Shown: one piece after another, positions 12,659-63,503 of the stretch
Position numbering within the stretch: position 1 is the first letter of the stretch
Layout of the letters: every line of letters starts with the position of its first letter
Assembly: GCA_036554285.1 (NCBI GenBank)
Contig: DATBNO010000109.1
Location: 248 to 64,247, forward strand
Direction of reading: 5' to 3'
Length of the DNA: 64,000 nucleotides
Source: Gemmatimonadaceae bacterium
GTDB taxonomy: Bacteria > Gemmatimonadota > Gemmatimonadetes > Gemmatimonadales > Gemmatimonadaceae
Notes under the pieces: generated by a model
What the model saw: only the letters and a program-made list of their open reading frames with translations
Told to the model about the DNA's origin: nothing
Database searches by the model: none
Made by a program: the position numbers and the translations under genes

Positions 12659-15310
12659 TCAGTCGCTGCGCAGCGCGGCCACGGGATCGAGCCGCGTTGC
12701 GCGCCGCGCCGGGATCCATGCCGACAGCGCGGCAATGGCGGCCAGCGCGACCGCCACCCACACGAACGTCACCGGATCATTGGGCTTCACGCCGAAGAGC
12801 AGCGTGCCCATGAGGTGTGTGAGGCTCAGCGCGCCGGCGACGCCGGCCACCAGTCCGATCGCCGCCAGCTCGAGCCCGCTCCGGATCGCCATCGACAGCA
12901 CCGAGGCCCGTTGCGCGCCTAACGCCATCCGGATGCCGAATTCGCGCCGGCGCTGCTGCACCGTGTAGGCGCCGAGACCGTAGATCCCGATCATGGCCAG
13001 CACGAGTCCGATGACGCCGAACGTCGCGAACAGCACGGTGTCGAGGCGCGTGTCACCCACCGCCGCCGCCGCCAAGTCGGACATCGGGGTGATGTCCGCG
13101 ACGGCCTGCGCCGGATCGATGTCGCGCAGCGCGGCGCGCAACGGCGCCGCCACCGCGAGCGGGTCGCCCGCCGTGCGGAGCACGAACGTCATGCCGCTGT
13201 AGGGAAACTGCTCGAGCGGCAAGTACATCTCCATGTACGGCTCGGTGCGCGGCCCGTCGTGATGGACGTCGCCGGCCACACCGACGATGCGCGCGGTGTG
13301 CCATCCGGTCCACTCGTACTTGAGCTCGTGGCCCACGGCCGATCCGTTAGGCCAGAACGTGCGCGCGAGCGTATGGCTCACCACCACGACCTCGGCGCTG
13401 CCACGGCGGTCGGTGGACTCGATACCGCGCCCCGACTCGATCGGGATGGTCATGGCCGCGAAGTAACCCGGCGTGATGGCGCGAAAGTCGCCCACCGGCT
13501 CCTCGCCCAACGGCGGAACGGGCAGCCCGACCACCGTAAAGGTGCTCGCGGACCGCAGACCGGTGAGCGGCAGCCAACTGATGGCTCCCACGGCACGCAC
13601 GCCCGGCAGGGACGCGAGCCGTTGCTCCGCCTGCTCGAAGAAGGTGACGGCCGTGGTGTCGTTGTTGTACGCGCGGCCGTGCAGGATGACTTGCGCCGCG
13701 AGCACGTCCCGCGTGTCGAAGCCTAACGGAACGCGGCGCAGGTCGGACAACGTCCGCACCATGAGCCCGGCGCCCGCGAGCAGCACCACCGCCAGCGCGA
13801 TCTCGACGACCACCAGCGCCGCCCGCAGCCTGCCGGCGCGCCGTGTCCCGCTCCCGCCGCGCCCACCCTCGCTCAGCGCGTCCTTGGGATCGTTGCGCGC
13901 GCTCTGCAGCGCCGGGGCCAGGCCGAACGCGATGCCGGTGGCCATCGCCACGCACACCGCGAACACCAGCACGCGTCCATCGATGCCGATCCCGCTCACG
14001 GCGGCGACGCCCAATTGCGCCGGCGCCATGGTGCCCAACACACGCGTCCCGATCCACGCGCCGGCAATGCCTAACGCAGTGCCGGCGAGCGCCAGCATCA
14101 GGCTCTCGGTGAGCATCTGGTGCACGATCCTTCGCGGCGCCGCGCCGAGCGCCACGCGTACGGCCATCTCGCGCCGCCGGTCGCCCGCGCGCGCCAGCAT
14201 CAGGTTCGCGACGTTGGCGCACGCGATCGCCAGGAGAAAACCCACCGCCCCGAGCAGCACCAGGAGGGGCGTCCGCGATCCCCCCACTAGGTCCACACGG
14301 AGGGGGCTCGCGAGCGCGGTCCAGTTGGCATTGAGCTCCGGCATTTCGACCGCTCGACGCCGCGCGATCGCCCGCATCTCGCGGTCTGCCTGTTGCCACG
14401 TCACGCCCGGCTTGAGCCGCGCCAGCACCCGCAAGTAGCGGCCACCCGACGTGCGATCGGTGTTGTCGAAGCGCATCGGCATCCAGACGGACGCCGGTTC
14501 GAAGAACGCGAAACCCTTGGGCAGCACGCCCACGATGGTCACGGCGTTCCCGTTGATTTGGACCGTGCTGCCGACGACGTCGCGCCGACCGCCGAAGCGC
14601 CGTTGCCACAATCCGTAGTCGATCACCGCGACCCGCGCGGCGGACGGCTGGTCCTCGGCCTCGGAGTACAACCGGCCGACGACCGGCTTGACGCCTAACA
14701 TTGGTAGGAGCGCCGCGTTCGCGTAGCGCGACTGCTCGGACGCCGGATCGCCGCCCGCCGTCACGACGGTCACCCGCGTGCCGACGAAGGCGGCCATGGC
14801 GGAGAACGACCGCGCTTCGTCGCGCCAGGCGAGGAAGTTGGCCGGTCCCGCCACGTTGTGCGCGTCCCCGAACGACACGTGGTGCTCCCAGAGCATCACC
14901 AGTCCGCCCGGGTCGGCGTACGGCAGCGGCTTGAGCAGCACCGCATCCACGACCGAGAAGATGGCCGTCGTGGCGCCGATGCCTAACGCGAGGGTCGCGA
15001 TCGCCGCCGCCGCGTAGACGCGCGCGTGGAGCAGCGACCGCGCGCCGAAGCGCACGTCCTGCGCGATGTGGTCGGCGAACGCGCTCCGGTACTCGTCGCG
15101 CGCCGCGTCGCGCCAGCGCTCGCGGCCGCCGAACGCGACCAGCGCCCGGCGCCGCGCATCGGCGGGATCGGCGCCGGCGCGGACGAGCGCCTCGGTCTGC
15201 ATGTCGACGTGGAAGCGCATCTCGTCCGTTAGGCGCGCCTCGCGCTGGCGGCGGCCCACGAGGCCGCCCACCCGGGCCATCGCCCCCGCGAGTGTGTCGA
15301 GCAACCGCAT
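12659..15310 (-). CDS. ADOP-family ABC transporter permease (MacB-like periplasmic core domains plus two FtsX modules)
   Basis: 883 aa. Cytoplasmic prefix helix ([21 protein letters not shown]), then two TM-periplasmic domain-3TM units. Sits immediately downstream of a PadR gene. Confidence 0.92.
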
Positions 15311-40794: not shown

Positions 40795-41163
40795 ATGGGC
40801 GTGAATCGTTCAACTACGCGCGCACATGGTCCGCGGGTTGCTTCCGCACTTCGCTACGGCGATTTTACGGTGTTTCGACTCCAAAAAACAATCCCGTTGC
40901 GTCTCAACTTATTCTGGCTTGCCGTCGTGTGCTGCGTGGTCGCGCAGATCGAGATCGTGCGCTCCGCGTTCAAGGCGCCTGCGGCGAGTGATGGAACCGT
41001 GCCCGCGCCCTCGCGCTGGACCGAGGTTTTGTGGACGGTCGTGCCGGCGATCGGCCTGGCGCTGGTTCTCGCGTTCACGTGGCGCGCCATTCACGCGCGA
41101 CAGCAAGCCGATGCGATGCGGCCCGCGACATCGAGCGCGGTGATCGTCGAGCAGCCATCGTGA
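40795..41163 (+). CDS. Hypothetical two-TM membrane protein upstream of ctaA
   Basis: Hydrophobic segments LNLFWLAVVCCVVAQI and VLWTVVPAIGLALVLAFTW. Start uncertain, no family recognised. Confidence 0.5.
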   Translation: MGVNRSTTRAHGPRVASALRYGDFTVFRLQKTIPLRLNLFWLAVVCCVVAQIEIVRSAFKAPAASDGTVPAPSRWTEVLWTVVPAIGLALVLAFTWRAIHARQQADAMRPATSSAVIVEQPS

Positions 41164-41173
41164 GGCCCATCCG

Positions 41174-42166
41174 ATGAAGGCGCTCAGACGTCTGTCGTAC
41201 GTGGCGCTGGTTGTTGCCGTCACGCAAATCGTGTTCGGCGCCATCGTTCGCATCAGCGGGTCGGGAATGGGATGCGGCAATCACTGGCCCAAGTGCTATG
41301 GGCGTTGGTTCCCGCCGCTCGACCAACCCAATCTGGTCATCGAGTGGACGCACCGGATGATCGCCGCCGCCCTGTTCGTGGCGCTGGCGACGCTGGTCGC
41401 CGCGGCGTATGTGAACCGCCGCGAGCCGATGGTGGGCGGACGCGGCGGCGTGTTGCGCGCGGCGCTGCTCGCCCTCGCGATGTGGCCGGCGCAGGCGCTC
41501 CTCGGCGCGATCACGGTGTGGTTAGGCAATGTGTGGTACGCGACCGCCGCGCATTGGCTCCTCGCGGCAACGTTGTTGGCGGCGCTGGCGGCGGCGGTGA
41601 TGCGGGCCGGTGGGTTAGGCGGCGCGTGCGCGCGCCGCGAGCGGACCTCGGCGCGGACGGCGCGCGGCGCCATCGCGGGCGCCGGGATTGCGTTGGTCAC
41701 GATCTGCCTGGGCGGCGTGACCGCCACGTTTCCGGGCGCCAACGTGGCCTGCTCGGCGTTTCCGCTCTGCGGCGTGGGGCTCGCGTCGGCCGTGGTGCCC
41801 GATGGACGCGTCATCCAGATGACGCACCGCGTGCTCGCGCTGCTGCTCACGCTGCACGTGTTCGGATTGCTGTGGGGCGTGTGGCGACGGCGCGAAGGCG
41901 TGGTGGTGCTGCGCGCAGTGGCGATTGCCGCGGCGCTCGTGGTTGCACAGATCGGCATTGCCGCCTCGATGATTGCGCTCGAGTTGCCGCCGGTCCTGCG
42001 GTCGCTGCATCAGGGCACGGGCGCGCTCATCTGGCTCACGCTGTTCTCCGCCGCCTACCTGGCGCGGATGGCATCGCGCGCCACAAACGAGGCGGCCGCG
42101 CGCGCGACGGCAGGCGACGCACCGGCGGCACGCGCGCTGTCGCCGGCTCCGGGAGCAGTGCGATGA
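41174..42166 (+). CDS. ctaA: Heme A synthase (COX15/CtaA)
   Basis: VTQIVFGAIVRISGSGMGCGNHWPKCYG...EWTHRMIAA shows the conserved Cys pair and His ligands. 8 TM. Confidence 0.9.
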   Translation: MKALRRLSYVALVVAVTQIVFGAIVRISGSGMGCGNHWPKCYGRWFPPLDQPNLVIEWTHRMIAAALFVALATLVAAAYVNRREPMVGGRGGVLRAALLALAMWPAQALLGAITVWLGNVWYATAAHWLLAATLLAALAAAVMRAGGLGGACARRERTSARTARGAIAGAGIALVTICLGGVTATFPGANVACSAFPLCGVGLASAVVPDGRVIQMTHRVLALLLTLHVFGLLWGVWRRREGVVVLRAVAIAAALVVAQIGIAASMIALELPPVLRSLHQGTGALIWLTLFSAAYLARMASRATNEAAARATAGDAPAARALSPAPGAVR

Positions 42167-48504: not shown

Positions 48505-49158
48505 TCACGCCGCTCCCGCGTTGTCCGCTGTTTCGTCCCGATGGATGGACCGCCACTCGGCGCGCCATTCGCACGTGCCCTCCCCGCGAGCGGCGCACCG
48601 CACGTGATCGACCGATCCGCCGCTCGCACCGAGCAACCGGAGCAGCTCCCGAAAGAACGACTCGTAGTACGCGCACCCGACACCGCGCGGCGACACGTCG
48701 ACCGTGGCCGACCGCGGCACCTCGAGAATCAGGAACGACCCGTGGCGCCGCACCGAGCCGTTGAGATACTTGCCGGCGATGCGCTGGGTTTGACGGAGCG
48801 CGATCGGACGCGCGAGCAACGATGGCAGCGATGCGATCAGTCCGCGCGACGCCGATGGAATCGACTGATAGGTCTGTGCCGCGAGATACCGGCCCGCGGC
48901 ACGGAACACCGCTTCGGCGTCGGGCCGTCGGCCGAGCAGCTTCGCGATGCCGACAGTTTCTTCGTACTCGGTTCGTTGATGCTTCTTCGCCGCGTCCGTG
49001 AAGCGCTGAATCTGCGCATAGACGGTATCGCTCAACCCGAGGCGTTTGTTCCGCAATTCGGGGACGAGCTCCGCGTCGAGGTCGTCGTCGGGGCTGTCCA
49101 CGCTGCGAACCGCCTCGAGAAAACTCAGCGGGAGAAGCGCGTCGACCGTTGTATGCAT
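48505..49158 (-). CDS. Hypothetical protein, possible V4R-like (Cys-containing small-molecule-binding) C-terminal domain
   Basis: Start MHTTVDALLPLSF at 49158. The C-terminus GCAYYESFFRELLRLL...VRCAARGEGTCEW resembles V4R domains; this assignment is tentative. Confidence 0.6.
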   Translation of the reverse strand: MHTTVDALLPLSFLEAVRSVDSPDDDLDAELVPELRNKRLGLSDTVYAQIQRFTDAAKKHQRTEYEETVGIAKLLGRRPDAEAVFRAAGRYLAAQTYQSIPSASRGLIASLPSLLARPIALRQTQRIAGKYLNGSVRRHGSFLILEVPRSATVDVSPRGVGCAYYESFFRELLRLLGASGGSVDHVRCAARGEGTCEWRAEWRSIHRDETADNAGAA

Positions 49159-49323
49159 TGAATGAGGCAGGAACGCTGAATGGCAGCACCCAAGGTAACG
49201 GGCGTGAGAGGGGGGTTCAAGATTTTTGGGAACCGATCGCACCACCCAATGCTTCAACATCGGAACGATCGCCGAGCCGTGAGGGCTCACTAACCGGGGC
49301 CTGGGTCTACAATCGAGAGCGGA

Positions 49324-49605
49324 ATGAACACCACTCCACACCCGGACGACAGGTCCTCAATGACGTGCACCGAGGTACTCCAACGAATCTACGAGTATCT
49401 CGACGGCGAGCTCACTCCGGAAATCGAGCTCAAAATTCGCGATCACTTGGCGTGTTGCCAACGGTGCTTTCCGCACTTCCGCCATGAGCAAGTTTTCTTG
49501 CGATTCCTGGAACGGCGAGCCACGATCGTCAATGCCCCTCCGGCACTGCGCCGCCGCATCATGCAAATGTTGATCGACGAGGAAGCCTCGCGCCCGTTGG
49601 AGTGA
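49324..49605 (+). CDS. Zinc-binding anti-sigma factor (ZAS / RsrA-like)
   Basis: CTEVLQRIYEYLDGEL...DHLACCQRC contains the HxxxCxxC ZAS motif. An alternative Met start lies at 49360. No sigma-factor gene is adjacent. Confidence 0.8.
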   Translation: MNTTPHPDDRSSMTCTEVLQRIYEYLDGELTPEIELKIRDHLACCQRCFPHFRHEQVFLRFLERRATIVNAPPALRRRIMQMLIDEEASRPLE

Positions 49606-50390
49606 TCGCGCGCACGGCTGTCGGGTTCGCGTTGGCGTGCGCGATCTCGTTGGTCGCGTGGCGCGCACGCGCGCTGTCGCGCAGTGGCGCACTGACGGCA
49701 ATAATCGTCGGTACGGCAGCGCTCGCCGCGGGCTGGTCGTGGGGCGCTCTTCTTTTTGCTTTCTTTGTGACCGGCACCGCGCTTTCGCGCGCCCAACGCG
49801 AAAACAAGTTGCGCCGCACGGAATCCGTCGTCGCCAAAGGCGGAACACGAGACGCGGTGCAAGTGCTGGCCAACGGCGGCCTGTTTGCCCTGGCGGCACT
49901 AGCGTCTCTCGTGGCTCCGGCCATTGCCTGTATGGCGATCGGTGGTGGGGCACTTGCAGCCGCTTCGGCGGATACATGGGGTACGGAGGTGGGAACACTT
50001 TCGTCCCGGTCCCCTCGATTGATCACTACGTGGCGACGGGTCGCTACCGGAACGTCCGGTGGCGTCACGATCGTCGGCCTCCTCGCAAGCGTCGCCGGGG
50101 GGGTGTTCGTCGGGGTAATGGCGTGGCTCGTGCACTGGCCACCACACGTTGCGGTCGCCGCGGCCGCAGGCGGAATAGCAGGCGCGTTGGCGGATTCGTT
50201 CGCCGGCGCAGTCCTGCAGTCTCGACGGCGATGCGCCCGATGCGGGGCGCTAACCGAACGAGCCGTGCACACCTGCGGCGACGTCACGCAACGGATCGGA
50301 GGCATTCCATGGTTGGACAACGACGGGGTGAATCTGCTGGCGGGGCTCACGGGAGCGGCGGTCGCGCTCATGCTAGCCGGACACCGATAA
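49602..50390 (+). CDS. DUF92 (TMEM19/VTE6-like) integral membrane protein
   Basis: SRSGALTAIIVGT...KGGTRDAVQVLANGG...ADTWGTEVG...TSGGVTIVGLLAS are the conserved DUF92 blocks. The GTG start overlaps the anti-sigma stop (GTGA). Confidence 0.88.
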   Translation: MIARTAVGFALACAISLVAWRARALSRSGALTAIIVGTAALAAGWSWGALLFAFFVTGTALSRAQRENKLRRTESVVAKGGTRDAVQVLANGGLFALAALASLVAPAIACMAIGGGALAAASADTWGTEVGTLSSRSPRLITTWRRVATGTSGGVTIVGLLASVAGGVFVGVMAWLVHWPPHVAVAAAAGGIAGALADSFAGAVLQSRRRCARCGALTERAVHTCGDVTQRIGGIPWLDNDGVNLLAGLTGAAVALMLAGHR

Positions 50391-50416: not shown

Positions 50417-50833
50417 GTGGCGCTGGCGGTCGTGGCGGTGGCCTGCATCGACACGACGCCGACGCAATACTTCAATCAGGGCGGCTTCAATTCGAACGGC
50501 TCGAGCGGCGGCGGCGGTTCGGGCGGCGCAATCGACAGCAATCTCGTCGGGACGTGGACGGAGACGATCGTCGACACGGTGAACGGCGATCCGACGAACC
50601 AGCAAACGATTTGGGCGTTCAACGCCAACGGCACAGCGTCGCTGACGGTGATAACGTTCGACATCACCACGAGCGCCGCGGACACGACGATCAAGAACGG
50701 CACGTGGACGGCCGACGGCAGCACGGTGACGATCACGTTCCAGGCGCCGAACACGGGGACTGAGGAGTTTACGTACGTCATCAATGGCAGCACACTCTTG
50801 CTCGGACAAACAGAGTTCGTGCGAACAGGGTGA
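50417..50833 (+). CDS. Hypothetical small lipoprotein (Gly/Thr-rich beta protein)
   Basis: The frame of ORF 49637..50833 becomes protein-like only from ALAVVAVAC (lipobox) onward (GTWTETIVDT...GTWTADGSTVTITF). The only nearby start is GTG 50417, so the start is uncertain. Confidence 0.5.
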   Translation: MALAVVAVACIDTTPTQYFNQGGFNSNGSSGGGGSGGAIDSNLVGTWTETIVDTVNGDPTNQQTIWAFNANGTASLTVITFDITTSAADTTIKNGTWTADGSTVTITFQAPNTGTEEFTYVINGSTLLLGQTEFVRTG

Positions 50834-50903: not shown

Positions 50904-52334
50904 GTGCTCCTCGTGAGCACCAATCGAGAGCGGCAGCCGATGCCCGTCGTGCCTAACGGCGTGGCGTGTGTGGCATCGGCGTTGGACCAAGCCGGATACA
51001 CGGTGCGGGTGGCGGATCTGTGTTTCGCCTCCGATCCTCATGCCGCCGCCCGCGCCGCGGCCCGCTCCTTCCAGCCGGACGTCATCGGCGTCTCGGTCCG
51101 CAACATCGACAACAGCGACCTCATCGCGCTCGAGCACTACACGCCCGAGGCGAGCGCCGTGTTGCGCACGCTGCGCGACGCGGCGCCCGACGCGCGCGTG
51201 ATCGCCGGCGGCGCGGCGTTCGGCGTCGCACCGGCGTCGTTGTTCGACGAGTTAGGCGTGGAGTTCGCCGTGGCCGGCGACGGCGAGCGGGCGACCACGG
51301 CGCTTCTCGATGCGCTCTCCGCGGGACGCGACCCGGCCGGCATTCCCGGCGTGGTGTCCCGCGGCCAGACGGCCACCGTCGTGACGCCGCCCGGCGGCGA
51401 TCCGGACGTGGATGCCTTCCCCTCGGCGCGCATGCATCGCTGGCTCGATCTCGCCAGGTACGAGCGGCGCGGCGGCACGGTGCCGATACAGACCAAGCGC
51501 GGCTGCGTGTTCAAGTGCATTTACTGCACGTATCTCAACGTCGAGGGTTGGGGGTATCGCCTGCGCGATCCCGAGCACGTCGTCGACGAAATGGAAGAGT
51601 TGGTGCACGACGCGGGTGTGCGGCACTTCGAGTTCGTGGACTCGACGTTCAATGCTCCGCCCCGCCATGCGGCCGCGATCTGTGAAGCGATCACGCGTCG
51701 CCCGCTGCGCGTCAAGCTGGACACGACCAACTTCACACCGGCTGCCGTGCCGCCCTACTTGCTCGACCCGATGCGCGCCGCGGGGTTCCGCTGGTTAGGC
51801 ATCACCGCCGAGAGCGCGAGCGACCCGGTGCTCGAGCGGCTCGAGAAGGGATTCGACGCGGCGCGCGTGAGGCAAGTGGCGGGCGAGGTCGAACGCGCCG
51901 GCATCGGCGTCCTCTGGATTTTTCTCGTCGGCGGTCCGGGCGAAACGATGCGGACGCTGAACGAAACGCTCGCCTTCGCGGTCGAGCGACTCGAGCGCGG
52001 CGACGCGGTGTACCTCACCGTTGGGCTGCGAGTGTATCCGGGCACGACGCTCCACCGGGTCGCGCTCGACGAGGGCGTCGTCGAACACGGTGATCCGCTC
52101 CTCGTGCCGCGATTCTATTTCTCGAGCGCGCTCTCGTTCGAGGCGGCGGTCGCGCGGCTGCGCCAAGTTGCGGCCCGCCATCCGCGGTTCATGTTCTCGG
52201 CCGACTCGCGGTCGGCGATTCTGCCGTACTTGACGCGGCTCGCATCGGTGTTGCACTTGCCGCGTCCGCATTGGCGGTACATGGGACTGTTCCAGCGAGT
52301 GGCCCGGTTGGGCGACCGCGTGCGCGCCGGCTAA
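50904..52334 (+). CDS. B12-binding-domain radical SAM protein (class B)
   Basis: N-terminal Rossmann-like B12 domain (VLLVSTNRE...VIGVSVRN), then CVFKCIYC (CxxxCxxC) radical-SAM cluster motif. GTG 50904 is preferred over ORF-track ATG 50784, which overlaps the lipoprotein gene. Confidence 0.9.
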   Translation: MLLVSTNRERQPMPVVPNGVACVASALDQAGYTVRVADLCFASDPHAAARAAARSFQPDVIGVSVRNIDNSDLIALEHYTPEASAVLRTLRDAAPDARVIAGGAAFGVAPASLFDELGVEFAVAGDGERATTALLDALSAGRDPAGIPGVVSRGQTATVVTPPGGDPDVDAFPSARMHRWLDLARYERRGGTVPIQTKRGCVFKCIYCTYLNVEGWGYRLRDPEHVVDEMEELVHDAGVRHFEFVDSTFNAPPRHAAAICEAITRRPLRVKLDTTNFTPAAVPPYLLDPMRAAGFRWLGITAESASDPVLERLEKGFDAARVRQVAGEVERAGIGVLWIFLVGGPGETMRTLNETLAFAVERLERGDAVYLTVGLRVYPGTTLHRVALDEGVVEHGDPLLVPRFYFSSALSFEAAVARLRQVAARHPRFMFSADSRSAILPYLTRLASVLHLPRPHWRYMGLFQRVARLGDRVRAG

Positions 52335-53561
52335 GTGACGCGCGCGCAGGTGATCGTGGTTGGCGCCGGGCCGGCGGGCAGCTCCACGGCGTGGCATCTG
52401 GCACGACTCGGCATCGACGTGCTGGTGCTGGACCGCGCGCGGTTTCCGCGCGACAAACCCTGCGCCGAGTACTTGAGTCCCGAGGCATCGCGGCTGCTGG
52501 ACGCGATGGGCGCGCTTGCGGCGTGCGAAGCGGCGGGCGCGGCGCAGCTCGCGGGCATGGTGGTGCGCGCGCCTAACGGAACGCTGTTGCGCGGCGATTT
52601 CGCGGCCGCGCACGGCTTTCGCGGATTCCGGGACCGCGGATTGGCGCTCCGCCGGTCGGTGCTCGACGCGCTGCTGCTCGAGCGCGCGCGCGCCGCAGGC
52701 GCGCGCGTGGTCGAGGAGCAGCGCGTGACAGGCCTCGTGCGGGACGCACGAGGCGCCGTGACGGGCATCGAAACGCTCGATGCAAGCGGACACACGGCCG
52801 AGCGGCAGGCGGCGATCATCGTGGGCGCCGACGGATTGCGATCGGTGGTGGCGCGCCGGCTCGGTCTCTCGCGCGCGCGACGGCGCCCCAAGCGGGTGGC
52901 GATGATCGCGCATTATCACGGCGTGGCGGGCATGGGAGCGTACGGCGAGATGCACGTGGAGCGGGATGGGTATGCGGGGTTTGCGGACGTGGGGAGTGGT
53001 GTGACCAACGTCGCCGTCGTCGCCCCGGCGACGCGCGTCAAGCGCGCCGCCATGGCGCCGGCGGCCTTCTTCGACGCATGGCTCGCAGCGCATCCACACT
53101 TGGGCGCCCGCCTGGCGGGCGCCCAGCGTGTGGATGCGGTGCGAGCGACGGGGCCGTTCGCCCACCACGCGCGCCGCGCGTGGGCGCGCGGCGCGGCGCT
53201 GGTGGGCGACGCGGCTGATTTCTTCGATCCGTTCACCGGCGAAGGCATCTACGCGGCGCTCCGCGGCGGCGAGATGCTCGCGCCGCACATCGTCGCCGCG
53301 CTCGACGCGCGGTCGCCGCGCGATGCCGATGCCGCCCTCGCGGCGTACGACGCCGAGCGACGTCGCACGTTCGCCGGCAAGTGGAGGGTCGAGCGACTCG
53401 TCGCCCTCGCGGTCGCGGTCCCCGCCCTCATGAATCGCGCAGCGGCCACACTCGGCCAGCGAAAAGACATGGCCGATTTGTTCGTCGGCGTCGCCGGCGA
53501 CTTCGTGCCGCCGAGCGAAATTCTGTCGGTGCGCTATCTTCTCCGCCTGCTTGCCACCTGA
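52335..53561 (+). CDS. FAD-dependent oxidoreductase of the geranylgeranyl-reductase family
   Basis: VIVVGAGPAGSSTAWHLARLG dinucleotide fold, GADGLRSVV, GDAADFFDPFTGEGI. The GTG start abuts the rSAM stop with a 0-nt gap. Confidence 0.9.
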   Translation: MTRAQVIVVGAGPAGSSTAWHLARLGIDVLVLDRARFPRDKPCAEYLSPEASRLLDAMGALAACEAAGAAQLAGMVVRAPNGTLLRGDFAAAHGFRGFRDRGLALRRSVLDALLLERARAAGARVVEEQRVTGLVRDARGAVTGIETLDASGHTAERQAAIIVGADGLRSVVARRLGLSRARRRPKRVAMIAHYHGVAGMGAYGEMHVERDGYAGFADVGSGVTNVAVVAPATRVKRAAMAPAAFFDAWLAAHPHLGARLAGAQRVDAVRATGPFAHHARRAWARGAALVGDAADFFDPFTGEGIYAALRGGEMLAPHIVAALDARSPRDADAALAAYDAERRRTFAGKWRVERLVALAVAVPALMNRAAATLGQRKDMADLFVGVAGDFVPPSEILSVRYLLRLLAT

Positions 53562-53577
53562 CGGAGCTCCCGCCGAC

Positions 53578-54051
53578 ATGATCGATGCCCCGACGTTTCG
53601 CAGCACGCTCGGCCGCTTTGCCACCGGCGTGACGGTGCTCACGGCGCGCGACGCGAGCGGCCGCGATCACGGCATGACCGTGAGCGCGTTCTGCTCGGTG
53701 AGTCTCGATCCGCCGCGCGTGTTGTGCTGTGTCGAGCGCAGCGCCGACATGTATCCCATCATCCAGGCCGCGTCGCACTTCGCGATCAATATTCTGACGA
53801 CGGCGCAGGAGCCGATTTCGCGGCGGTTCGCCGAGGAGCGCGACGACCGGTTCGACGGGTTGGGCTACACCCGCGGCCTAACGGGATTGGTGCTGCTCGA
53901 GGACACGCTCGCCTACCTCGAGTGCGCGGTGGCGGCGCGGTACGACGGCGGCGACCATCTCGTCGTGTTGGGCGACGTGATCGCCGGCGCGGCGTCGGAC
54001 GGCCGCCCGCTGCTGTACTACCGCGGCGGCTACGCGCAGATGGAGCGGTGA
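53578..54051 (+). CDS. Flavin reductase-like (FMN-binding split-barrel) protein
   Basis: FRSTLGRFATGVTVLTA...GMTVSAFCSVSLDPP...HFAINIL. An alternative TTG start at 53551 overlaps the upstream gene. Confidence 0.88.
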   Translation: MIDAPTFRSTLGRFATGVTVLTARDASGRDHGMTVSAFCSVSLDPPRVLCCVERSADMYPIIQAASHFAINILTTAQEPISRRFAEERDDRFDGLGYTRGLTGLVLLEDTLAYLECAVAARYDGGDHLVVLGDVIAGAASDGRPLLYYRGGYAQMER

Positions 54052-54761
54052 TCGCCGTCACGCCGCGTCCGCGCCGCGGGCGCGAATATCTGGATGACGC
54101 CGAGCAGATGGACACGCTCGTCGTCCGCCAATCGTTAGGCGATGTGGCGCGCGCCAACGCGCTCTTCGGCGGCACGCGGGCGGTGCTGGCGGAGCTCGCC
54201 CGTGCGGTGCGACACGCAGGGGATGGACGGCGGCCGGTCACGCTGCTCGACGTGGGCACGGGCCGCGGCGACATCCCGGCGGCGGCGGCGGCCTGGTGCA
54301 CCCGCCACGGCGTGGTCCTCGAAACGGTGGGCATCGAGAAATCCGAGTCGCTGGCGCGCATCGCGGCCGATCACACCACGGTCCTCTCCGCCGACGCGCT
54401 GCACCTGCCCTTCGCGAATCGGAGTGTCGACATCGTGATGTGCTCGCAGGTCCTCCACCACTTCGAGCGCGCCGATGCGATGACGGTGTTGCGTGAGATG
54501 CACCGCGTGGCGCGCCGTCGCGTGGTCGTGAGCGATCTGCATCGCAGCTGGCTCGCCGCCGCCGGCATCTGGCTCGCCTCGTATCCGCTCCTATTCCATC
54601 CGGTGAGCCGGCACGACGGTGTGCTGTCGGTGTTGCGCGGCTTCACCCGCGGCGAGTTGGGCGAGTTGGTGCGCCAGTCCGTTGGGCAGGACGCTCACGT
54701 CCGCTACCGGTTGGGCTTTCGCGTGACGGCCTCGTGGACGCCCGCGGAGCGCGACCAGTGA
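54048..54761 (+). CDS. Class I SAM-dependent methyltransferase
   Basis: Motif I LLDVGTGRGDIP and post-I/II region LPFANRSVDIVMCSQVLHHF. GTGA overlap with the upstream stop. Confidence 0.85.
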   Translation: MIAVTPRPRRGREYLDDAEQMDTLVVRQSLGDVARANALFGGTRAVLAELARAVRHAGDGRRPVTLLDVGTGRGDIPAAAAAWCTRHGVVLETVGIEKSESLARIAADHTTVLSADALHLPFANRSVDIVMCSQVLHHFERADAMTVLREMHRVARRRVVVSDLHRSWLAAAGIWLASYPLLFHPVSRHDGVLSVLRGFTRGELGELVRQSVGQDAHVRYRLGFRVTASWTPAERDQ

Positions 54762-55282
54762 CGGACCCCCGCATCGCGTTGCGTGATCCGGTTCGACTGC
54801 CGGCCATGCCCGACGGATGGTCGATGCGCGTGATCGACGAGCGCGTGGTCAAGGCGAGCGTCCGCACGATGTTTGCGCTGGCACGCGAGGTGGATCGGTG
54901 GCCGGAACATCTCGCGCACTATCGGTGGGTGCGATTCGACCAGCGCGACACGGAGGGAGGCGGTCTCGTCGCGATGTCAGCGTCTCGTCCGTTTGGGCGA
55001 ATGGTGTGGCCAACGTGGTGGACGTCGGAGATGGGCATCGACGATGCGCGTCCGGCGATTCGTTTTCGTCACGTGCACGGCGTCACGCGAGGCATGGAAG
55101 TGGAGTGGACGTTCACGGAGCGGAATGACGGCGTGCTCGTTCGCATCGTACATTGCTGGAACGGGCCGGGGTGGCCGTTGATTGGTGTCGCAGCGGCCCG
55201 ACACGTCATCGGGCCCGTGTTCATTCATGGCATCGCGAGTCGAACGCTGGCTGGGTTGGCCGCGGTCGCGGAGCGCCGGTGA
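54758..55282 (+). CDS. SRPBCC (polyketide cyclase/dehydrase-like) family protein
   Basis: VKASVRTMFALAREVDRWPEHLAHY...EVEWTFTERNDGVLVRIVH is typical of the Polyketide_cyc2/START-like fold. GTG 54758 overlaps the upstream stop; an alternative ATG lies at 54734. Confidence 0.8.
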   Translation: MTDPRIALRDPVRLPAMPDGWSMRVIDERVVKASVRTMFALAREVDRWPEHLAHYRWVRFDQRDTEGGGLVAMSASRPFGRMVWPTWWTSEMGIDDARPAIRFRHVHGVTRGMEVEWTFTERNDGVLVRIVHCWNGPGWPLIGVAAARHVIGPVFIHGIASRTLAGLAAVAERR

Positions 55283-55324
55283 CGGCGCGCGCAACTTCAT
55301 CTCGAGCACACGGCACATAACGAC

Positions 55325-56563
55325 ATGTCACGTCGCGTAGTGATTACCGGCATCGGCTGCATCACTCCCATTGGCAGCACCGTCGATGGTTTGTGGTGCG
55401 GACTGCAGGCGCAGCGGTCCGCGGTCACCGAACTGTCGCGGTTCGATCCGTCGCCGTTCCGGAGTCACCTGGCGGCGGAAGTGCGCGACTTCGAGCCTAA
55501 CGACTTCCTGGATCGCAAGCGGGCGCGCCGGTTGGACCGGTTCGGGCAATTTTCCGTGGTGGCGGCGCGGATGGCGATCGAGGACGCGCACCTGGACCTC
55601 GCCGTCGAGGACAAGGAGCGCATCGGCACCATGATGGGCACTGCGTTAGGCGGCGTGGGCTACGCCGAGGAGCAGTGCGGCGTGTACTATCGCGGCGGTC
55701 TCCGGGACGTGGATCCGGCGCTGGCACTCATGGTGTTCGGCGGCTCGTCCAGCTGCAACATCGCGATCGAGTTCGGCGTGCAGGGGCCGAACAGCACCAA
55801 CGCGATGAGCTGTGCGTCGGGCACGATCGCGATCGGCGATGGCTTCCGGCAGATCCGCGACGACTACGCGGACGTGATGATCTGCGGCGCGGCGGAAACG
55901 CCGCTGTGGCCGTTGTGCTTCGGCGCGTTCGCGATCATTCGCGCCATGTCGACCCGCAACGCCGATCCGGCGAGCGCCAGCCGTCCGTTCGACCGCGATC
56001 GCGATGGATTCGTGATGGCCGAAGCGGCGGCGGTGCTGGTGATGGAAGAGCGCGACCGCGCGATCGCGCGCGGGGCGCCGATCTACGGCGAGGTGTTGGG
56101 CTTCGGCATGTCCAACGACGCCTACCACATGACGGCGCCGCGCCCCGATGGCTCACAGGCGGCGAAGTCGATGCGCCGCGCGCTCGACGACGCGCACGTG
56201 CGTCCCGAGGAAATCGACTACGTGAACGCGCACGGCAGCTCGACGCCGCTCAACGACACCACGGAAACGCTGGCGATCAAGCGGGTGTTCGGCGAGCGCG
56301 CGTACCGGATCCCGGTGAGCGGCACCAAGGGCTACTACGGCCATGCGTTAGGCGCGAGCGGCGCGATCGAGGCGGCCATTTGCGCGCTGGCGATGACGCG
56401 CGACTGGCTGCCGCCCACGGTGAATCTGGCCACGCCCGACGAGGGCTGCGACCTGGACTACATCCCGCGCATCGGCCGCGCCGCCCAGCCCGAGCTGCTG
56501 TTGTCGAACTCGTTCGGCTTCGGCGGGATCAACGCCGCGCTCGTGCTGCGGAAGGCGAGCTGA
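55325..56563 (+). CDS. Beta-ketoacyl synthase (KAS I/II, FabF-like), stand-alone
   Basis: RVVITGIGCITPIG, active-site Cys MSCASG, His contexts DAYHMTAP and NAHGSSTP, and C-terminal GFGGINAALVL. Confidence 0.95.
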   Translation: MSRRVVITGIGCITPIGSTVDGLWCGLQAQRSAVTELSRFDPSPFRSHLAAEVRDFEPNDFLDRKRARRLDRFGQFSVVAARMAIEDAHLDLAVEDKERIGTMMGTALGGVGYAEEQCGVYYRGGLRDVDPALALMVFGGSSSCNIAIEFGVQGPNSTNAMSCASGTIAIGDGFRQIRDDYADVMICGAAETPLWPLCFGAFAIIRAMSTRNADPASASRPFDRDRDGFVMAEAAAVLVMEERDRAIARGAPIYGEVLGFGMSNDAYHMTAPRPDGSQAAKSMRRALDDAHVRPEEIDYVNAHGSSTPLNDTTETLAIKRVFGERAYRIPVSGTKGYYGHALGASGAIEAAICALAMTRDWLPPTVNLATPDEGCDLDYIPRIGRAAQPELLLSNSFGFGGINAALVLRKAS

Positions 56564-59629: not shown

Positions 59630-59649
59630 GCCTAACGTCCCGCCTAACG
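59630..59649 (+). repeat. Two direct GCCTAACG copies 12 nt apart (GCCTAACGTCCCGCCTAACG) in the hemB-AKR intergenic gap
   Basis: Read directly. The second copy contains the hemB TAG stop (complement of 59644-59646). Confidence 0.95.
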
Positions 59650-60615
59650 GAGCCGAGTGGCCGCGTCGATCGCGAAATACGAGATGATGATGTCCGCGCC
59701 GGCGCGGCGAATGGCGGTGAGCGACTCCATCATCGCGCGCTCGCCGTCGAGCCACCCGCGCTCGGCAGCCGCTTTAATCATAGCAAATTCGCCGCTCACC
59801 TGATAGGCGGCGAGGGGGACCAACGTCGTGCGCCGAACGCGCGCGATCACGTCGAGATACGGGCCCGCGGGCTTTACCATCACGGCATCGGCGCCTTCGT
59901 CCAGATCGAGCCGCACCTCGCGCACCGCTTCGCGCGCGTTGGACGGGTCCATCTGATAGCCGCGCCGATCGCCCGAGCGCGGCGTCGATTCCGCTGCCTC
60001 ACGAAACGGCCCGTAAAATACCGACGCAAACTTGGCCGCGTACGAGAGAATCGGCGTGTGCGCGAAGTGCGCGTGGTCGAGCGCGCGGCGAATGGCCGCG
60101 ACGCGCCCGTCCATCATGTCGCTCGGGGCGACGATGTCCGCGCCCGCGTGCGCATGCGACACCGCTTCGCGCGCGAGCAGCTCGAGTGTCGCATCGTTGT
60201 CGACGTCGCCGTTCGCGAGCACGCCGCAGTGTCCGTGGTCCGTGTACTCGCAGAGGCAGACGTCGGTGATGACGACCAGCTCCGGGAGCTCGCGCTTGAG
60301 CGCGCGCACCGCGTGTTGCACCGGTCCATTGTCGTCCCATGCATGTGAGCCGGTGGCGTCTTTCTCGTCGGGAATTCCGAACAGCAGCACGCCGCCCACG
60401 CCGTGCGTGGCCGCGCGCTCGGCGTCGCGCAGCATCTCGTCGACCGACGTTTGGCTGACGCCGGGCATGGCGTCGATGGGACGGCGCACGTTGGCGCCGC
60501 CGCGCACGAACAGCGGGAGGACGAGCTGCTCCGGCGCCAGGTGCGTCTCGCGCACGAGGCGGCGCAACGATTCGGTGCGCCGGAGCCGGCGCGGGCGGTT
60601 GACGGGGAATGCCAT
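59644..60615 (-). CDS. hemB: Porphobilinogen synthase (delta-aminolevulinate dehydratase)
   Basis: RPRRLR...LVLPLFV..., [15 protein letters not shown], and Schiff-base lysine region [13 protein letters not shown]. Confidence 0.95.
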
Positions 60616-60678
60616 ATGCCTAACGCAACGAAATTGAATGAACCGGCCGGCGCGCGCGCGCCGGATCGAGTGGCGACG

Positions 60679-61704
60679 TCATTCGGGCTGCGGCACCGGC
60701 ACGGCGGCGAGACCGCGGAGCACCGCGAGAATCTCGCCCGCGCCCTTCTGTAACAACTCGGATGCGAGGCGCATCCCGGCGTCCGCCGGATGCGCCGCAT
60801 CCACGGACGTGCTGCCGCGCAGAACGCGGCGTCCCTCCACGTCGGCGATGAGACCGTGGAGCACCAGCCCGGCCGACGTCTCCATCACGAGCGCGCCGAT
60901 CGGCACCTGGCATCCCCCTTCGAGCGCGGCGAGAAACGCACGCTCGGCCGTCGTGGCCACGCCGGTGGGGGCGTGGTGCAGCGTGGAGAGGATGCCTAAC
61001 GCAGAGGCATCGTCCGCGCGCGCCTGGACCGCGATGGCGCCCTGCCCCGGCGCCGGCAGCCATTCCGGCGCATCGAGCCAGGCCGAGATGCGGCCCTGCG
61101 CATCGAGACGCCGCAGTCCCGCCGCGGCGAGAATCGCCGCGTGCACCTGCCCCTCATCCACTTTTCGCACGCGCGTCGGCACGTTGCCGCGCAGATCGAC
61201 GACATCGAGATCGGGACGCGCCGCGCGCAATTGGGCACGGCGCCTCAGACTTGACGTGCCGACCCGGCTGCCGCGTGGGAGGTCGGCCAACGATTCGGCA
61301 TCGATGTTCTCGTTCACGACGAGTACGTCGCGCGGGTCTTCGCGCTCGAGCTGCGCGGCGATCGTTAGACCGGGCGGCGAATCGGTGGGCAGGTCCTTGA
61401 GCGAATGCACGCAGCAGTCGACTCGTCCGGCGATGAGCGCGGCCTCGAGCTCGTGGGTGAACAGGCCCTTGGCGCCGATCTCGCGCAGCGGTTGGTCGGC
61501 CTTCTTATCGCCCGCGGTCTTGAACGGGACCAGCTCGGCCTCGACACCGCGCGCCGCGAGCAGGGATGCCACCTGTCGCGCTTGCCGCATGGCGAGCTCG
61601 GACGCTCTCGTGGCTATGCGAAGCGAAGTGGTCGGCACCGAAAGGGGCGTCGGCATTGCGTCGTAATCTATACCCCGCGAATGCGACCGGCGGCGCGGGG
61701 CCAC
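60679..61704 (-). CDS. hemC: Hydroxymethylbilane synthase (porphobilinogen deaminase)
   Basis: LRIATRASELAMRQA...TAGDK...GLFTHELE...VHSLKDLPT...RGNVPTR. An alternative Met start lies at 61656. Confidence 0.93.
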   Translation of the reverse strand: MAPRRRSHSRGIDYDAMPTPLSVPTTSLRIATRASELAMRQARQVASLLAARGVEAELVPFKTAGDKKADQPLREIGAKGLFTHELEAALIAGRVDCCVHSLKDLPTDSPPGLTIAAQLEREDPRDVLVVNENIDAESLADLPRGSRVGTSSLRRRAQLRAARPDLDVVDLRGNVPTRVRKVDEGQVHAAILAAAGLRRLDAQGRISAWLDAPEWLPAPGQGAIAVQARADDASALGILSTLHHAPTGVATTAERAFLAALEGGCQVPIGALVMETSAGLVLHGLIADVEGRRVLRGSTSVDAAHPADAGMRLASELLQKGAGEILAVLRGLAAVPVPQPE

Positions 61705-61708
61705 GCCT

Positions 61709-63256
61709 CTAACGCAGACCGACTACCACCGCGTCGACGAGCGCGTCGATCGTCGCCGTGGCCGCCTCGGCGTGCACGGCGAAGCCAAGCGACCGCGCGG
61801 CGGCGCTGGTCACCGGCCCCATGGTGATCACACGCGCCTCGCCCACCACATCCGCGCTGCCGCCGGCATCGACGAAGAATCGCACGGTGGACGCCGAGGT
61901 GAACGTGATCGCATCCACGGAGCCGGCCTCGAGCGCCTCACGCGCCGCCCTCGCACCCGACGCGTCGGCCACTGTCCGATAGGCGACGACCTGGTCGACG
62001 GCAGCGCCGACGCGCCCGAGCGTGTCGGGCAGCGTGTCACCCGCGCCCTCGGCTTTCACGAACAACACGCGCGCACCTCGCACATCGGGGCGATCGCGCA
62101 GGGCGTCGGCCAAGCCTTCGGCCGTGGAACGCGCCGGGATGACGTCGGCCGCGATGCCCCGCGCGAGGAGCGCGCGTGCGGTTGCCTGCCCAACCGCGCC
62201 CACGCGCACACCGGCGAACTGCCGCGCGTCGCCGCCCGCGGCGCGGAGGATGTCCCACGCGATCTCGACCGCGTTCTGCGACGTGAACAGCACCCACTGG
62301 CACTCGGTCAGACGCTCGAGCGCGGCGCGGATGGGCGCCGGGTTGGCCGCCTCGATCACGATGGCCGGCGCCTCGATCACATCTGCGCCTAACTCAGTTA
62401 GTCGAGCGGCCAGATCCGATGCCTGCGCGCGCGCGCGCGTCACGATGATGCGGCGGCCGGAGAGCGGCCGCCGGTCGAACCACGCGATCTCGTCGCGCAG
62501 CCGCGCCACTTGGCCCACGATCGTGATCGACGGCGCCGTCACCTTGGCGTCGCGCGCGGCGTCGACGATTCCCGCGAGCGTCGCGCACACGGTGCGCTGC
62601 CGCGGCCACGTGCCCCATTCCACCACCGCGGCCGGTGTGTCACCCGACAACCCCGCCTTCGACAGTGCAGCCACGATCCCCGGCAGCCGCTTGACGCCCA
62701 TGTAGAGCACGAGAGTCCCGCCGGCGCGCGCCAACGACCCCCAATCGACGTCGCTTTCGGACTTCGCCGGATCCTCGTGTCCCGTCACGAACGTCACGGC
62801 CGATGCGAGACCCCGATGCGTCACCGGAATCCCTGCGTAGGCGGGTGCGGCAACGCCCGCGGTCACGCCGGGCACGATCTCGAACGTGACACCAGCCGTC
62901 GCCAGCGCCTGCGCTTCCTCGCTGCCGCGCCCGAACACGAACGGATCGCCGCCCTTGAGGCGCACCACGCGCTTGCCCTCCCGCGCCAGCCGCACGAGGA
63001 GCGCGGTGATTTCGTCCTGCGGCGTCGACCGCGAGCCGCCGCGTTTGCCCACATCGTGGAGCTCTGCACCGGCGCGCACCCCACCGTCATGCAGGATGCG
63101 CGGATTCACGAGGGCGTCGTACACCACCGCGTCGGCGGCGCCGAGCAGCGCGTGCGCTTTCATCGTTAGCAGGCCCGGATCACCGGGGCCTGCCCCAACG
63201 AGCGAGACGAATCCGCTTGGCTTGGGGGGCGACGAGTCCCCGGAGGAAACGTGCAT
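61709..63256 (-). CDS. Fused uroporphyrinogen-III C-methyltransferase / uroporphyrinogen-III synthase (CobA-HemD)
   Basis: VSLVGAGPGDPGLLT...VVRLKGGDPFVFGRG...VPGVTAG (SUMT domain), followed by a HemD-like domain (RIIVTRA...VLFTSQNAV). Start MHVSSGD at 63256. Confidence 0.9.
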   Translation of the reverse strand: MHVSSGDSSPPKPSGFVSLVGAGPGDPGLLTMKAHALLGAADAVVYDALVNPRILHDGGVRAGAELHDVGKRGGSRSTPQDEITALLVRLAREGKRVVRLKGGDPFVFGRGSEEAQALATAGVTFEIVPGVTAGVAAPAYAGIPVTHRGLASAVTFVTGHEDPAKSESDVDWGSLARAGGTLVLYMGVKRLPGIVAALSKAGLSGDTPAAVVEWGTWPRQRTVCATLAGIVDAARDAKVTAPSITIVGQVARLRDEIAWFDRRPLSGRRIIVTRARAQASDLAARLTELGADVIEAPAIVIEAANPAPIRAALERLTECQWVLFTSQNAVEIAWDILRAAGGDARQFAGVRVGAVGQATARALLARGIAADVIPARSTAEGLADALRDRPDVRGARVLFVKAEGAGDTLPDTLGRVGAAVDQVVAYRTVADASGARAAREALEAGSVDAITFTSASTVRFFVDAGGSADVVGEARVITMGPVTSAAARSLGFAVHAEAATATIDALVDAVVVGLR

Positions 63257-63503
63257 CACAGGAAAATTTGCTTCGCCATGTTCGGTCAATTCGCAGTCCT
63301 TATGCCGAGGCGCCGCCTGGTGAGCTCCTCTGAAGTTGTTGAAAATGATAACTAAAGGGATGCGAGTGATGGGGAAGATCGCTCGGCCGCACATCCAAAG
63401 TCACCGGTGCACCCGCCTGGATGCGTTCACGCGCGTTTGCGATGCACACGCCGTCGCGCCGGGGGCGTGCATCGAGCGCCCCGGACACGTATGATCAAGG
63501 GAC

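Follow-up and report, generated by a model that had tools for sequence, protein, structure and literature searches.

Operons of the hidABC (mtr–fdo–t3pks) type, known from the hierridin locus of cyanobacteria and as a conserved three-gene operon from 58 planctomycete strains, encode a methyltransferase (MT), directly followed by a flavin adenine dinucleotide (FAD)-dependent oxidoreductase, together with a type III polyketide synthase (T3PKS; PMC10896814, PMC8086630). Expressed heterologously, the planctomycete T3PKSs produce pentadecyl- and heptadecyl-resorcinol; the MT of G. maris introduces a single C-methyl group (PMC10896814, PMC8086630). Likewise, srsABC of Streptomyces griseus and pkqABC of Mycobacterium smegmatis turn alkylresorcinols into alkyl benzoquinones, which act as alternative electron carriers (PMC9927152, PMC5916927). 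Here we analyse a 64-kb stretch of contig DATBNO010000109.1 from a Gemmatimonadaceae bacterium (the window; ~68% G+C). It carries an operon of six genes encoding a class B, cobalamin (B12)-binding radical S-adenosylmethionine (SAM) enzyme (rSAM), an FAD flavoprotein, a flavin reductase, an MT, an SRPBCC protein and a β-ketoacyl-acyl carrier protein (ACP) synthase (KAS). We suggest, with a probability of roughly 0.55, that this operon makes a tailored phenolic lipid, in which an alkylresorcinol-type compound is converted to a methylated, methoxylated hydroquinone or quinone by a pathway related to Hid, Srs and Pkq that does without a T3PKS.

We favor this reading because the MT and the flavoprotein have homologues in the MT and oxidoreductase that accompany T3PKSs, because distant relatives of the rSAM always neighbor a KAS or a T3PKS, and because the gene families of the window recur around T3PKS genes in fuller loci. 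In addition, the SRPBCC protein resembles aromatase/cyclases (ARO/CYCs) by profile and predicted fold and is distributed in a manner complementary to T3PKSs, and the nearest functionally assigned relatives of the rSAM are C-methyltransferases acting on sp2 carbons. An alkyl-polyketide or quinone, as envisaged in a preliminary description of the window, is the right neighborhood for the product.

The MT matched model NF004851 of the PRK06202 family best, with a weak match to UbiE/MenG (33 bits). When annotated plasmids were searched with the MT by tblastn, homologues of 29–35% identity were found beside an FAD enzyme and a T3PKS in three phyla. In Paludisphaera borealis (Planctomycetota) and Deinococcus psychrotolerans, the genes lie on one strand in the order MT–NAD(P)/FAD oxidoreductase–T3PKS, or with the synthase first; in Sphingobium indicum (Alphaproteobacteria), the MT gene and the genes for an FAD-dependent monooxygenase and a T3PKS lie on opposite strands. 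The MTs from these three organisms scored 160–309 bits against NF004851 and matched no other model. The window MT is 32% identical to that of the Paludisphaera operon (E 1e-24), and the window flavoprotein is 29% identical over 374 residues to the oxidoreductase of the same operon (E 2e-15), with which it has the motifs FPRxKxC and GDAxxxxxPFTGEG in common. Moreover, the Paludisphaera oxidoreductase shows the same NCBIfam pattern as the window flavoprotein, matching the geranylgeranyl reductase (GGR) superfamily model GG-red-SF above MenJ and QhpG. The rSAM and the flavoprotein gave no match to annotated plasmids by tblastn at strict thresholds, and a loose threshold returned one partial GGR match only.

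SrsB-type MTs belong to a different, isoprenylcysteine carboxyl methyltransferase (ICMT)-like family. The earlier suggestion to compare the cluster with SrsB and SrsC was good in spirit. The statement that the combination matches no nameable pathway was too strong, given that two of its members are homologous to the products of the first two genes of hidABC/mtr–fdo–t3pks (PMC10896814, PMC8086630). Like these operons, the window has a PRK06202-family MT and a GGR-like FAD oxidoreductase, encoded by translationally coupled genes, in what would be a lipidic polyketide pathway. However, the flavin reductase gene lies between the two in the window, and neither a B12-rSAM, a flavin reductase, a KAS nor an SRPBCC protein is described for hid-type operons in the literature consulted (PMC8086630, PMC10896814). 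The missing T3PKS, its apparent substitution by a FabF-type KAS and an ARO/CYC-like SRPBCC protein, and the added B12-rSAM and flavin reductase are truly unmatched.

A profile scan of genome contigs with an alignment of the rSAM gave 277 confirmed relatives. The best 80 of these 277 loci, all from Gemmatimonadota, were kept and compared with the window proteins by tblastn. Of the 80 loci, 60 carry the six genes in unchanged order and on one strand; the other 20 end at contig edges, save a single locus that gave no match for the flavin reductase. Such a conserved order shows that the gene arrangement is not due to chance, and bears out the earlier view of a real, conserved and uncharacterized biosynthetic operon. 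Across the 80 loci, the rSAM is 68–96% identical to that of the window. Hundreds of rSAM relatives were found at 70–96% identity, the named ones stemming from metagenome-assembled genomes (MAGs) of Gemmatimonadaceae, barring two MAGs labelled otherwise. The KAS (median identity 76%) is among the most conserved proteins of the set, and in Gemmatimonadaceae its gene always comes after that of the SRPBCC protein. The flavin reductase was detected in 69/80 loci and is missing from the other cluster types described below. A DUF92 membrane protein is encoded directly upstream in 74/80 loci, and a lipocalin-like lipoprotein was detectable in 24/80. Unrelated upstream genes, for an M24 peptidase and a 278-residue hypothetical protein, are also syntenic in Gemmatimonadota loci, so that conservation inside Gemmatimonadaceae alone is not proof of functional linkage. 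The DUF92 protein, previously put forward as an isoprenoid link, is connected to the cluster only within this family and was absent from all non-Gemmatimonadota cluster types examined; its membership of the cluster is uncertain.

Several individual loci call for comment. Two contigs of one MAG (MFD09206.bin.1.40) each carry the cluster (L039, 3923–6157; L042, 11201–13432), with about 1.5 kb extra between the MT and SRPBCC genes, and represent either a duplicated cluster or two strains binned together. In a complete-chromosome MAG (OY970320.1, 3.29 Mb; L018, 9422–11200), the flavoprotein reading frame runs on into the flavin reductase to give 583 residues, probably through a frameshift or assembly error rather than as a true fusion. 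A 90.9-kb Gemmatimonadaceae contig (L092; ENA contig_75862) has the same synteny with genes fragmented by frameshifts; its 589-residue ‘rSAM’ forms a separate, misleading cluster in the 50% representative library. The seemingly closest rSAM relative outside the family (P0136) proved to be a frameshift-ridden Gemmatimonadaceae contig and was discarded. Finally, Gemmatimonadaceae-type clusters are present on contigs deposited as ‘Burkholderiales bacterium’ (L022, JADGRS010000289.1; L002/L046, JACMME010000266.1), with one protein named ‘Anaerolineae bacterium’; these foreign names are probably binning or labelling errors.

When cluster representatives at 50% identity were searched exhaustively, the Gemmatimonadaceae rSAMs formed one full-length cluster and a few fragments, the next relatives being just 38–47% identical over their full length. 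A further profile search, begun from distant rSAM representatives, was again mostly filled by Gemmatimonadaceae but added a few distant proteins of use. Every distant relative that was read (40–47% identity) neighbors a KAS or a T3PKS as condensing enzyme. In type B loci (L083, L085, L086, L091 and one JGI contig), the order is KAS–rSAM–flavoprotein–short-chain dehydrogenase/reductase–YceI–small lipoprotein, accompanied by a PigE-like aminotransferase; the flavoprotein of L083/L085 is 38–39% identical to that of the window. A type C locus (L087) reads KAS–rSAM–peptidase-U32–YceI–DedA/VTT. In type D loci (L084/L089), an rSAM gene faces adjacent, overlapping KAS and SRPBCC genes, followed by a second rSAM and a PRK06202-type MT (for L089, NF004851 was the best of five matches); here, the KAS and the SRPBCC protein are 61% and 39% identical to their window counterparts. 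In type E (L088), the rSAM adjoins a T3PKS. As the flanks of these distant loci are unrelated to each other and their G+C contents range from 56 to 68%, the pairing with a condensing enzyme has been kept across distant lineages.

Starting from the L088-type enzyme, a scan of metagenomes gave 80 further loci. Of these, 38 were informative, extending 1.3 kb or more past the rSAM gene on its downstream side; in 34 of the 38, a T3PKS gene immediately adjoins that of the rSAM. The fullest of the orders read is MT–U32–ACP–KAS–rSAM–T3PKS (L121, 4782–11031), parts of which recur up to the contig ends in L134, L140 and L142; in L128, U32 and T3PKS are encoded on the opposite strand. Other loci read FAD-monooxygenase–MT–rSAM–T3PKS (L127; up to the rSAM and then the contig end in L131 and L141) or KAS–rSAM–T3PKS (L143, L146; in L107 with the KAS on the opposite strand). 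The MTs tested from these loci (L121, L127, L140) matched NF004851/PRK06202 only. The window has the MT and the oxidoreductase in common with hid-type operons, the MT, KAS and rSAM with the T3PKS metagenome clusters, and the KAS–SRPBCC pair with type D. No SRPBCC protein was found in the 80 T3PKS-type metagenome loci; this family is limited to cluster types lacking a T3PKS (the window and L084/L089), a complementary distribution.

The five loci with the MT (PRK06202)–U32–ACP–KAS–B12-rSAM–T3PKS set (L121, L134, L140, L142, L128) are from sediment and wetland metagenomes, and no description of this cluster type was found in the literature. UbiU and UbiV, which hydroxylate rings without O2, belong to the U32 family (PMC6747719, PMC10990095), and the U32-bearing loci look like an oxygen-independent counterpart of the Srs, Pkq and Hid pathways. 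In type B loci (L083, 8736–16174; L085, L086, L091), the KAS is ketosynthase (KS)-α-like (motif STGCTSS), the flavoprotein is GGR-like, and the class III aminotransferase matched the prodigiosin PigE aminotransferase model best (396 bits, below the cut-off), which suggests an amino-lipid as product. Many clusters carry a second, divergent B12-rSAM paralogue, on the − strand just 3′ of the T3PKS gene in L124, L127, L130 and L132 and at 15264–16682 in L084/L089, where it is interrupted by a stop codon; these paralogues form their own deep branch in a neighbor-joining tree. Respiratory genes lie beside some clusters, including COX1 and SCO1 (L126, 7243–9813), cytochrome c (L127, 5576–6952) and a molybdopterin oxidoreductase (L140, 6392–7030); in the window, CtaA is encoded upstream (41144–42166), and hemB, hemC and cobA-hemD downstream (59644–63400). 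Such neighbors would be in keeping with a quinone-like product or with the demand of the rSAM for cobalamin, but may also be a coincidence.

A profile of the SRPBCC family matched the ARO/CYCs BexL (7e-13), TcmN (2e-8) and WhiE, 5–9 orders of magnitude better than the Coq10-like protein 1t17 (3e-4). A structure predicted with AlphaFold2 from database homologues (mean confidence, pLDDT, 88) had ARO/CYCs as all of its ten best Foldseek matches in the PDB, and the TcmN pocket residues W28, Y35, W65, S67, M91 and W95 are kept in the family; of the catalytic pair Y35 and R69, the latter is replaced by Met, and R82 is replaced by His. The SRPBCC protein resembles ARO/CYCs of type II polyketide synthases (TcmN, WhiE-ORFVI, ZhuI, BexL) in its predicted helix-grip fold and in these six pocket residues. 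Unlike type II systems, the cluster lacks a KS-β/chain length factor, a dedicated ACP and a ketoreductase, and the partner KS is FabF-like, not KS-α-like. The KAS matched FabF structures at E 1e-125 (1e5m, E 8e-125) and has the Cys-His-His triad, the active-site motifs SCASG, NAHGSST and GHALGASG, and the C-terminal GFGG loop.

Alternatively, genes one to five could be a tailoring cassette, acting on a phenolic lipid or quinone with a core made elsewhere in the genome; the KAS would then be the FabF of the organism, placed at the operon end, with no ring synthesis by KAS and SRPBCC. The KAS scores above the FabF equivalog cut-off and is conserved like a housekeeping protein, its gene is the only one set off by a real intergenic gap (42 nt), and a T3PKS or fab operon could lie beyond the 64 kb of the genome in view. 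However, no acpP, fabD or fabG accompanies the KAS gene, the KAS–SRPBCC adjacency recurs with an MT and rSAMs in the unrelated L084/L089, and a KAS gene lies directly against the rSAM gene in four further lineages. We consider such a cassette improbable. From its sequence context, the KAS is a true cluster member, as the preliminary description had assumed; the pairing of rSAM relatives with a KAS in unrelated contexts agrees with this.

The flavoprotein scored 150.3 bits against GG-red-SF (TIGR02032), below the cut-off of 158.8, 105 bits against QhpG and 75 against MenJ. It keeps the FPRDKPC motif and the GGR-type cysteine (KPCAEY), while the stretch at the position of the lipid-tunnel motif of GGR, YxWxFP, reads GYAGFADV, with neither W nor FP. 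Assignments as MenJ (75 bits against a cut-off of 700), as a digeranylgeranylglycerophospholipid (DGGGPL) reductase (54 against 580) and as BchP (far below the cut-off) were rejected. The best PDB matches were FADH2-dependent halogenases (8zop, CmlS), and the protein also resembles PqsL; a halogenase was dismissed, as in HMMER alignments the catalytic Lys (CmlS K71) is replaced by Leu and WxWxIP aligns with GYAGFAD. To judge from its sequence, the flavoprotein is probably a ring hydroxylase. Ring oxygenation is favored because a dedicated HpaC-type flavin reductase adjoins it (148 bits against HsaB/HpaC-type models, all below cut-off), because it is similar to enzymes working with free reduced flavin (halogenases, PqsL), and because the same slot is filled in other loci by U32 proteins or classical aromatic-ring FAD monooxygenases, which would take the oxygenase role there.

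The GGR-like flavoprotein could also be seen as a MenJ/GGR-like prenyl saturase in menaquinone or isoprenoid tailoring, with DUF92 as a polyprenyl-phosphate kinase-like enzyme, a UbiE-like MT and the rSAM methylating the quinone, and the SRPBCC protein as a Coq10-like chaperone. The DUF92 gene directly upstream in 74/80 loci, the low-scoring matches to MenJ (75 bits) and to UbiE/MenG (33 bits), the reach of the SRPBCC profile to 1t17 and the haem and respiratory genes nearby are in line with such a role. However, the scores for MenJ, DGGGPL reductases, HpnR, HpnJ and BchP lie far below their cut-offs, the ARO/CYC matches of the SRPBCC profile far exceed the Coq10-like one, DUF92 is missing from every cluster version outside Gemmatimonadota, and the conserved KAS would be left unexplained. 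We regard this pathway as very improbable. The earlier framing in terms of isoprenoids, hopanoids, glycerol dialkyl glycerol tetraethers and GGR-type saturases found no support either, the HpnR, HpnJ, MenJ, DGGGPL-reductase and BzaD models all being far below cut-off. For GrsA/B, Tes, Mss and HpnP, the NCBIfam scan listed no match, and no separate search was aimed at them.

The rSAM contains B12-binding (PF02310, 53 bits) and radical SAM (PF04055, 73 bits) domains, which place it in class B, and its CxxxCxxC motif (CVFKCIYC) is invariant across the family. The top NCBIfam model was TIGR04072, at 300 bits against a cut-off of 360; the ten nearest relatives outside Gemmatimonadota reached 287–343 bits, all below this cut-off. 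The rSAM scored 211 bits against the BzaD model (cut-off 450) and 142 against the TsrM-type model (cut-off 500), and TsrM was its best PDB match (E 4e-33); BzaD and TsrM are its nearest functionally assigned relatives. Assignments as HpnR (65 bits against 650), HpnJ (98 against 578) or BzaD itself, the B12 lower-ligand enzyme, were rejected. BzaD (predicted) and TsrM (shown) are Csp2 C-methyltransferases (PMC12931638), and their genomic contexts are unrelated to the window cluster. In anammox clusters, the gene for a Kuste2803-type (TIGR04072) enzyme lies amid paralogues of FabF/FabB (PMC2649909, PMC13459092). These ‘ladderane’ clusters resemble the window in having a B12-rSAM gene beside FabF/FabB-type ketosynthases. 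In contrast, their amxACP, FabZ and phytoene-desaturase-like genes are absent from the window, the accessory genes of which are of the phenolic-lipid type.

This likeness raises the possibility of a ‘ladderane-like’ accessory cluster of type II fatty acid synthesis, which would yield an unusual branched membrane fatty acid without an aromatic ring. The KAS would elongate an acyl-ACP, the rSAM would modify an unactivated chain carbon, by methylation or in another way, the flavoprotein and flavin reductase would act as an enoyl or exomethylene reductase, and the MT and SRPBCC protein would handle the acyl intermediate. The best rSAM model, a ‘lipid biosynthesis B12-binding/radical SAM protein’, points in this direction, as do a KAS that is a bona fide FabF by score and triad, a flavoprotein whose best model is a reductase superfamily and whose GGR-type cysteine is kept, and the ACP–KAS–rSAM order of several loci, which suggests an ACP-bound substrate. 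However, the TIGR04072 cut-off is missed by 60 bits, with close relatives sub-threshold as well, and the YxWxFP motif of GGR is absent. Moreover, the MT and flavoprotein families are those of T3PKS operons, the SRPBCC protein is ARO/CYC-like, a T3PKS adjoins most of the informative rSAM relatives, and U32 proteins or aromatic-ring monooxygenases occupy the flavoprotein slot elsewhere. We therefore consider tailoring of a fatty-acyl chain rather unlikely.

In the phenolic-lipid pathway that we prefer, the FabF-type KAS would extend an acyl-ACP borrowed from fatty-acid synthesis and, with the ARO/CYC-like SRPBCC protein, would give an alkyl-aromatic core; alternatively, it might just supply an acyl chain to a ring-forming enzyme encoded elsewhere. 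The HidB-like flavoprotein would oxygenate the ring with reduced flavin from the dedicated flavin reductase, and the PRK06202-family MT would methylate a ring oxygen or carbon. The B12-rSAM would methylate a carbon beyond ordinary SAM chemistry, either a ring sp2 carbon (as BzaD and TsrM) or a position on an ACP-bound alkyl chain. The most economical reading is that KAS and SRPBCC protein replace a T3PKS, or feed one encoded elsewhere. The sequence of alkylresorcinol core, methylation, flavoprotein hydroxylation and alkyl benzoquinone follows the logic of Srs and Pkq (PMC9927152). This likeness is one of pathway logic, not of sequence comparison, and a role as membrane or respiratory lipid is possible. 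In Srs and Pkq, methylmalonyl-CoA rather than a radical SAM enzyme is the source of the ring C-methyl group.

A number of observations weigh against this pathway. In agreement with the earlier account, tblastn detected no ACP, ketoreductase, dehydratase, enoylreductase or T3PKS in the 64-kb window (for the T3PKS query, at E 1e-3). Furthermore, no T3PKS domain was present among the called genes examined in Gemmatimonadaceae loci, and neither an ACP nor a T3PKS was found in any Gemmatimonadota locus; because of their six-gene order, the other genome loci leave no room for a T3PKS. In the ACP–KAS–rSAM–T3PKS loci, the KAS accompanies the polyketide synthase rather than replacing it, and by analogy probably builds the starter chain. 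A dedicated fatty acid synthase has this task in the Azotobacter ars cluster. The window KAS passes the cut-off of the housekeeping FabF equivalog (TIGR03150, 493.75 bits), Met stands in for the catalytic R69 of TcmN in the SRPBCC family, and no case is known to us in which a lone FabF-type KS builds an aromatic ring with an ARO/CYC. In a neighbor-joining tree, the Gemmatimonadaceae rSAM clade grouped with the KAS-linked types and was not nested in the T3PKS-linked clade. The rSAM may act on the chain rather than the ring, its nearest named family, TIGR04072, being a fatty-acid-cluster enzyme. Finally, co-expression in C. glutamicum left the role of the HidB-like oxidoreductase open (PMC10896814).

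All six open reading frames were recovered at 50904–56563 on the + strand (Table 1), and the Pfam, NCBIfam and sequence data agree with the domains and tight coupling previously described for these co-directional genes. The stop codon of the rSAM gene (TAA, 52332–52334) directly abuts the GTG of the flavoprotein gene, GTGA overlaps couple the flavin reductase and MT genes (54048–54051) and the MT and SRPBCC genes (54758–54761), and a spacer at 55283–55324 precedes the ATG of the KAS gene. For the rSAM, the GTG at 50904 is the sensible start, as the ATG further upstream, at 50784, falls within another gene. For the flavin reductase, the ATG, with GGAG at 53563–53566, 11 nt upstream, is a more likely start than the TTG. 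Scans for promoters and terminators gave no signal above shuffled expectation.

Table 1. Predicted features of the operon and of the genes directly upstream; positions refer to the window.
Feature	Position	Strand	Remarks
Hypothetical protein	48505–49341	−	278 aa; sub-threshold V4R at the C-terminus (E 0.012, 16 bits), sole Pfam match
DUF92 integral membrane protein	49602–50390	+	Pfam DUF92, 211 bits
Small lipoprotein, lipocalin-like domain	~50417–50833	+	Lipobox AVAC; Pfam Lipocalin_4 at 5e-8
Class B (cobalamin-binding) radical SAM enzyme (rSAM)	50904–52334	+	476 aa; Pfam B12-binding and Radical_SAM
HidB-like FAD flavoprotein	52335–53561	+	408 aa; Pfam FAD_binding_3; sub-threshold GG-red-SF
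HpaC/HsaB-type NAD(P)H:flavin reductase	53578–54051 (alternative start TTG 53551)	+	Pfam Flavin_Reduct, 145 bits
PRK06202-family class I SAM methyltransferase (MT; HidA/Mtr-like)	54048–54761	+	237 aa; NF004851, 133 bits
SRPBCC protein, type II PKS aromatase/cyclase-like	54758–55282	+	174 aa; Pfam Polyketide_cyc
FabF-type β-ketoacyl-ACP synthase II (KAS)	55325–56563	+	412 aa; TIGR03150, 513 bits

The lipoprotein gene between the DUF92 and rSAM genes had previously been overlooked, and its product is a possible accessory member of the cluster. No sequence similarity could be detected between this lipoprotein and the ~140-residue small lipoproteins that end the L083/L085 clusters (E 0.35). In one planctomycete-related strain, a lipoprotein and a lipid/isoprenoid-binding protein are encoded within the operon (PMC10896814), which is echoed by the YceI and small lipoproteins of types B and C and by the lipocalin-like lipoprotein of the window. 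The gene for the 278-residue hypothetical protein is divergent from that of DUF92, with synteny in 53 Gemmatimonadota loci. As small hydrophobic molecules are the ligands of V4R domains, this protein might serve the operon as a sensor or regulator. Housekeeping genes unrelated to the cluster make up the flanks, for an ABC transporter, an amino-acid permease and the M24 peptidase upstream and, on the opposite strand downstream, for a DHH protein, an aldo-keto reductase, hemB, hemC and cobA-hemD.

A full-text literature search found no description of a B12-rSAM or U32 protein combined with polyketide-quinone or T3PKS/alkylresorcinol clusters, nor of a B12-rSAM with a GGR-type cluster. In reviews on radical SAM enzymes that modify lipids or depend on B12, the unsolved ‘ladderane’ enzyme stands alone in this sequence neighborhood (PMC13459092, PMC12931638). 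The window cluster is possibly a variant of alkylresorcinol/alkylquinone clusters and part of an undescribed family of rSAM polyketide-lipid clusters. More speculatively, and in our view doubtful as a whole, Gemmatimonadaceae might universally encode a T3PKS-independent route, with a KAS and ARO/CYC-like core, to a ring-methylated alkyl(hydro)quinone serving as a second respiratory or stress quinone. This route would be one branch of a larger, undescribed family of B12-rSAM ‘polyketide quinone’ clusters, the sediment versions of which would be O2-independent, like UbiU/V-dependent ubiquinone synthesis.

Lipids derived from alkylresorcinols are found in the envelopes of cysts and spores, act as factors of antibiotic tolerance and, under hypoxia, serve mycobacteria and Streptomyces as alternative quinones for respiration (PMC9927152, PMC5916927). 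The present analysis brings to light a large cluster family that couples a B12-rSAM with a condensing enzyme, be it a KAS or a T3PKS. It also offers a tractable genetic handle on TIGR04072-like enzymes, which have so far been discussed only for ladderane biosynthesis, and its U32 variants suggest that polyketide quinones may be made independently of oxygen. Gemmatimonadaceae, abundant and poorly cultured, are among the commonest bacterial families in soil. Their version of the pathway appears to be fixed in the family (277 genome hits, the six-gene order being intact wherever a locus is long enough), which points to an undescribed core lipid of these bacteria.

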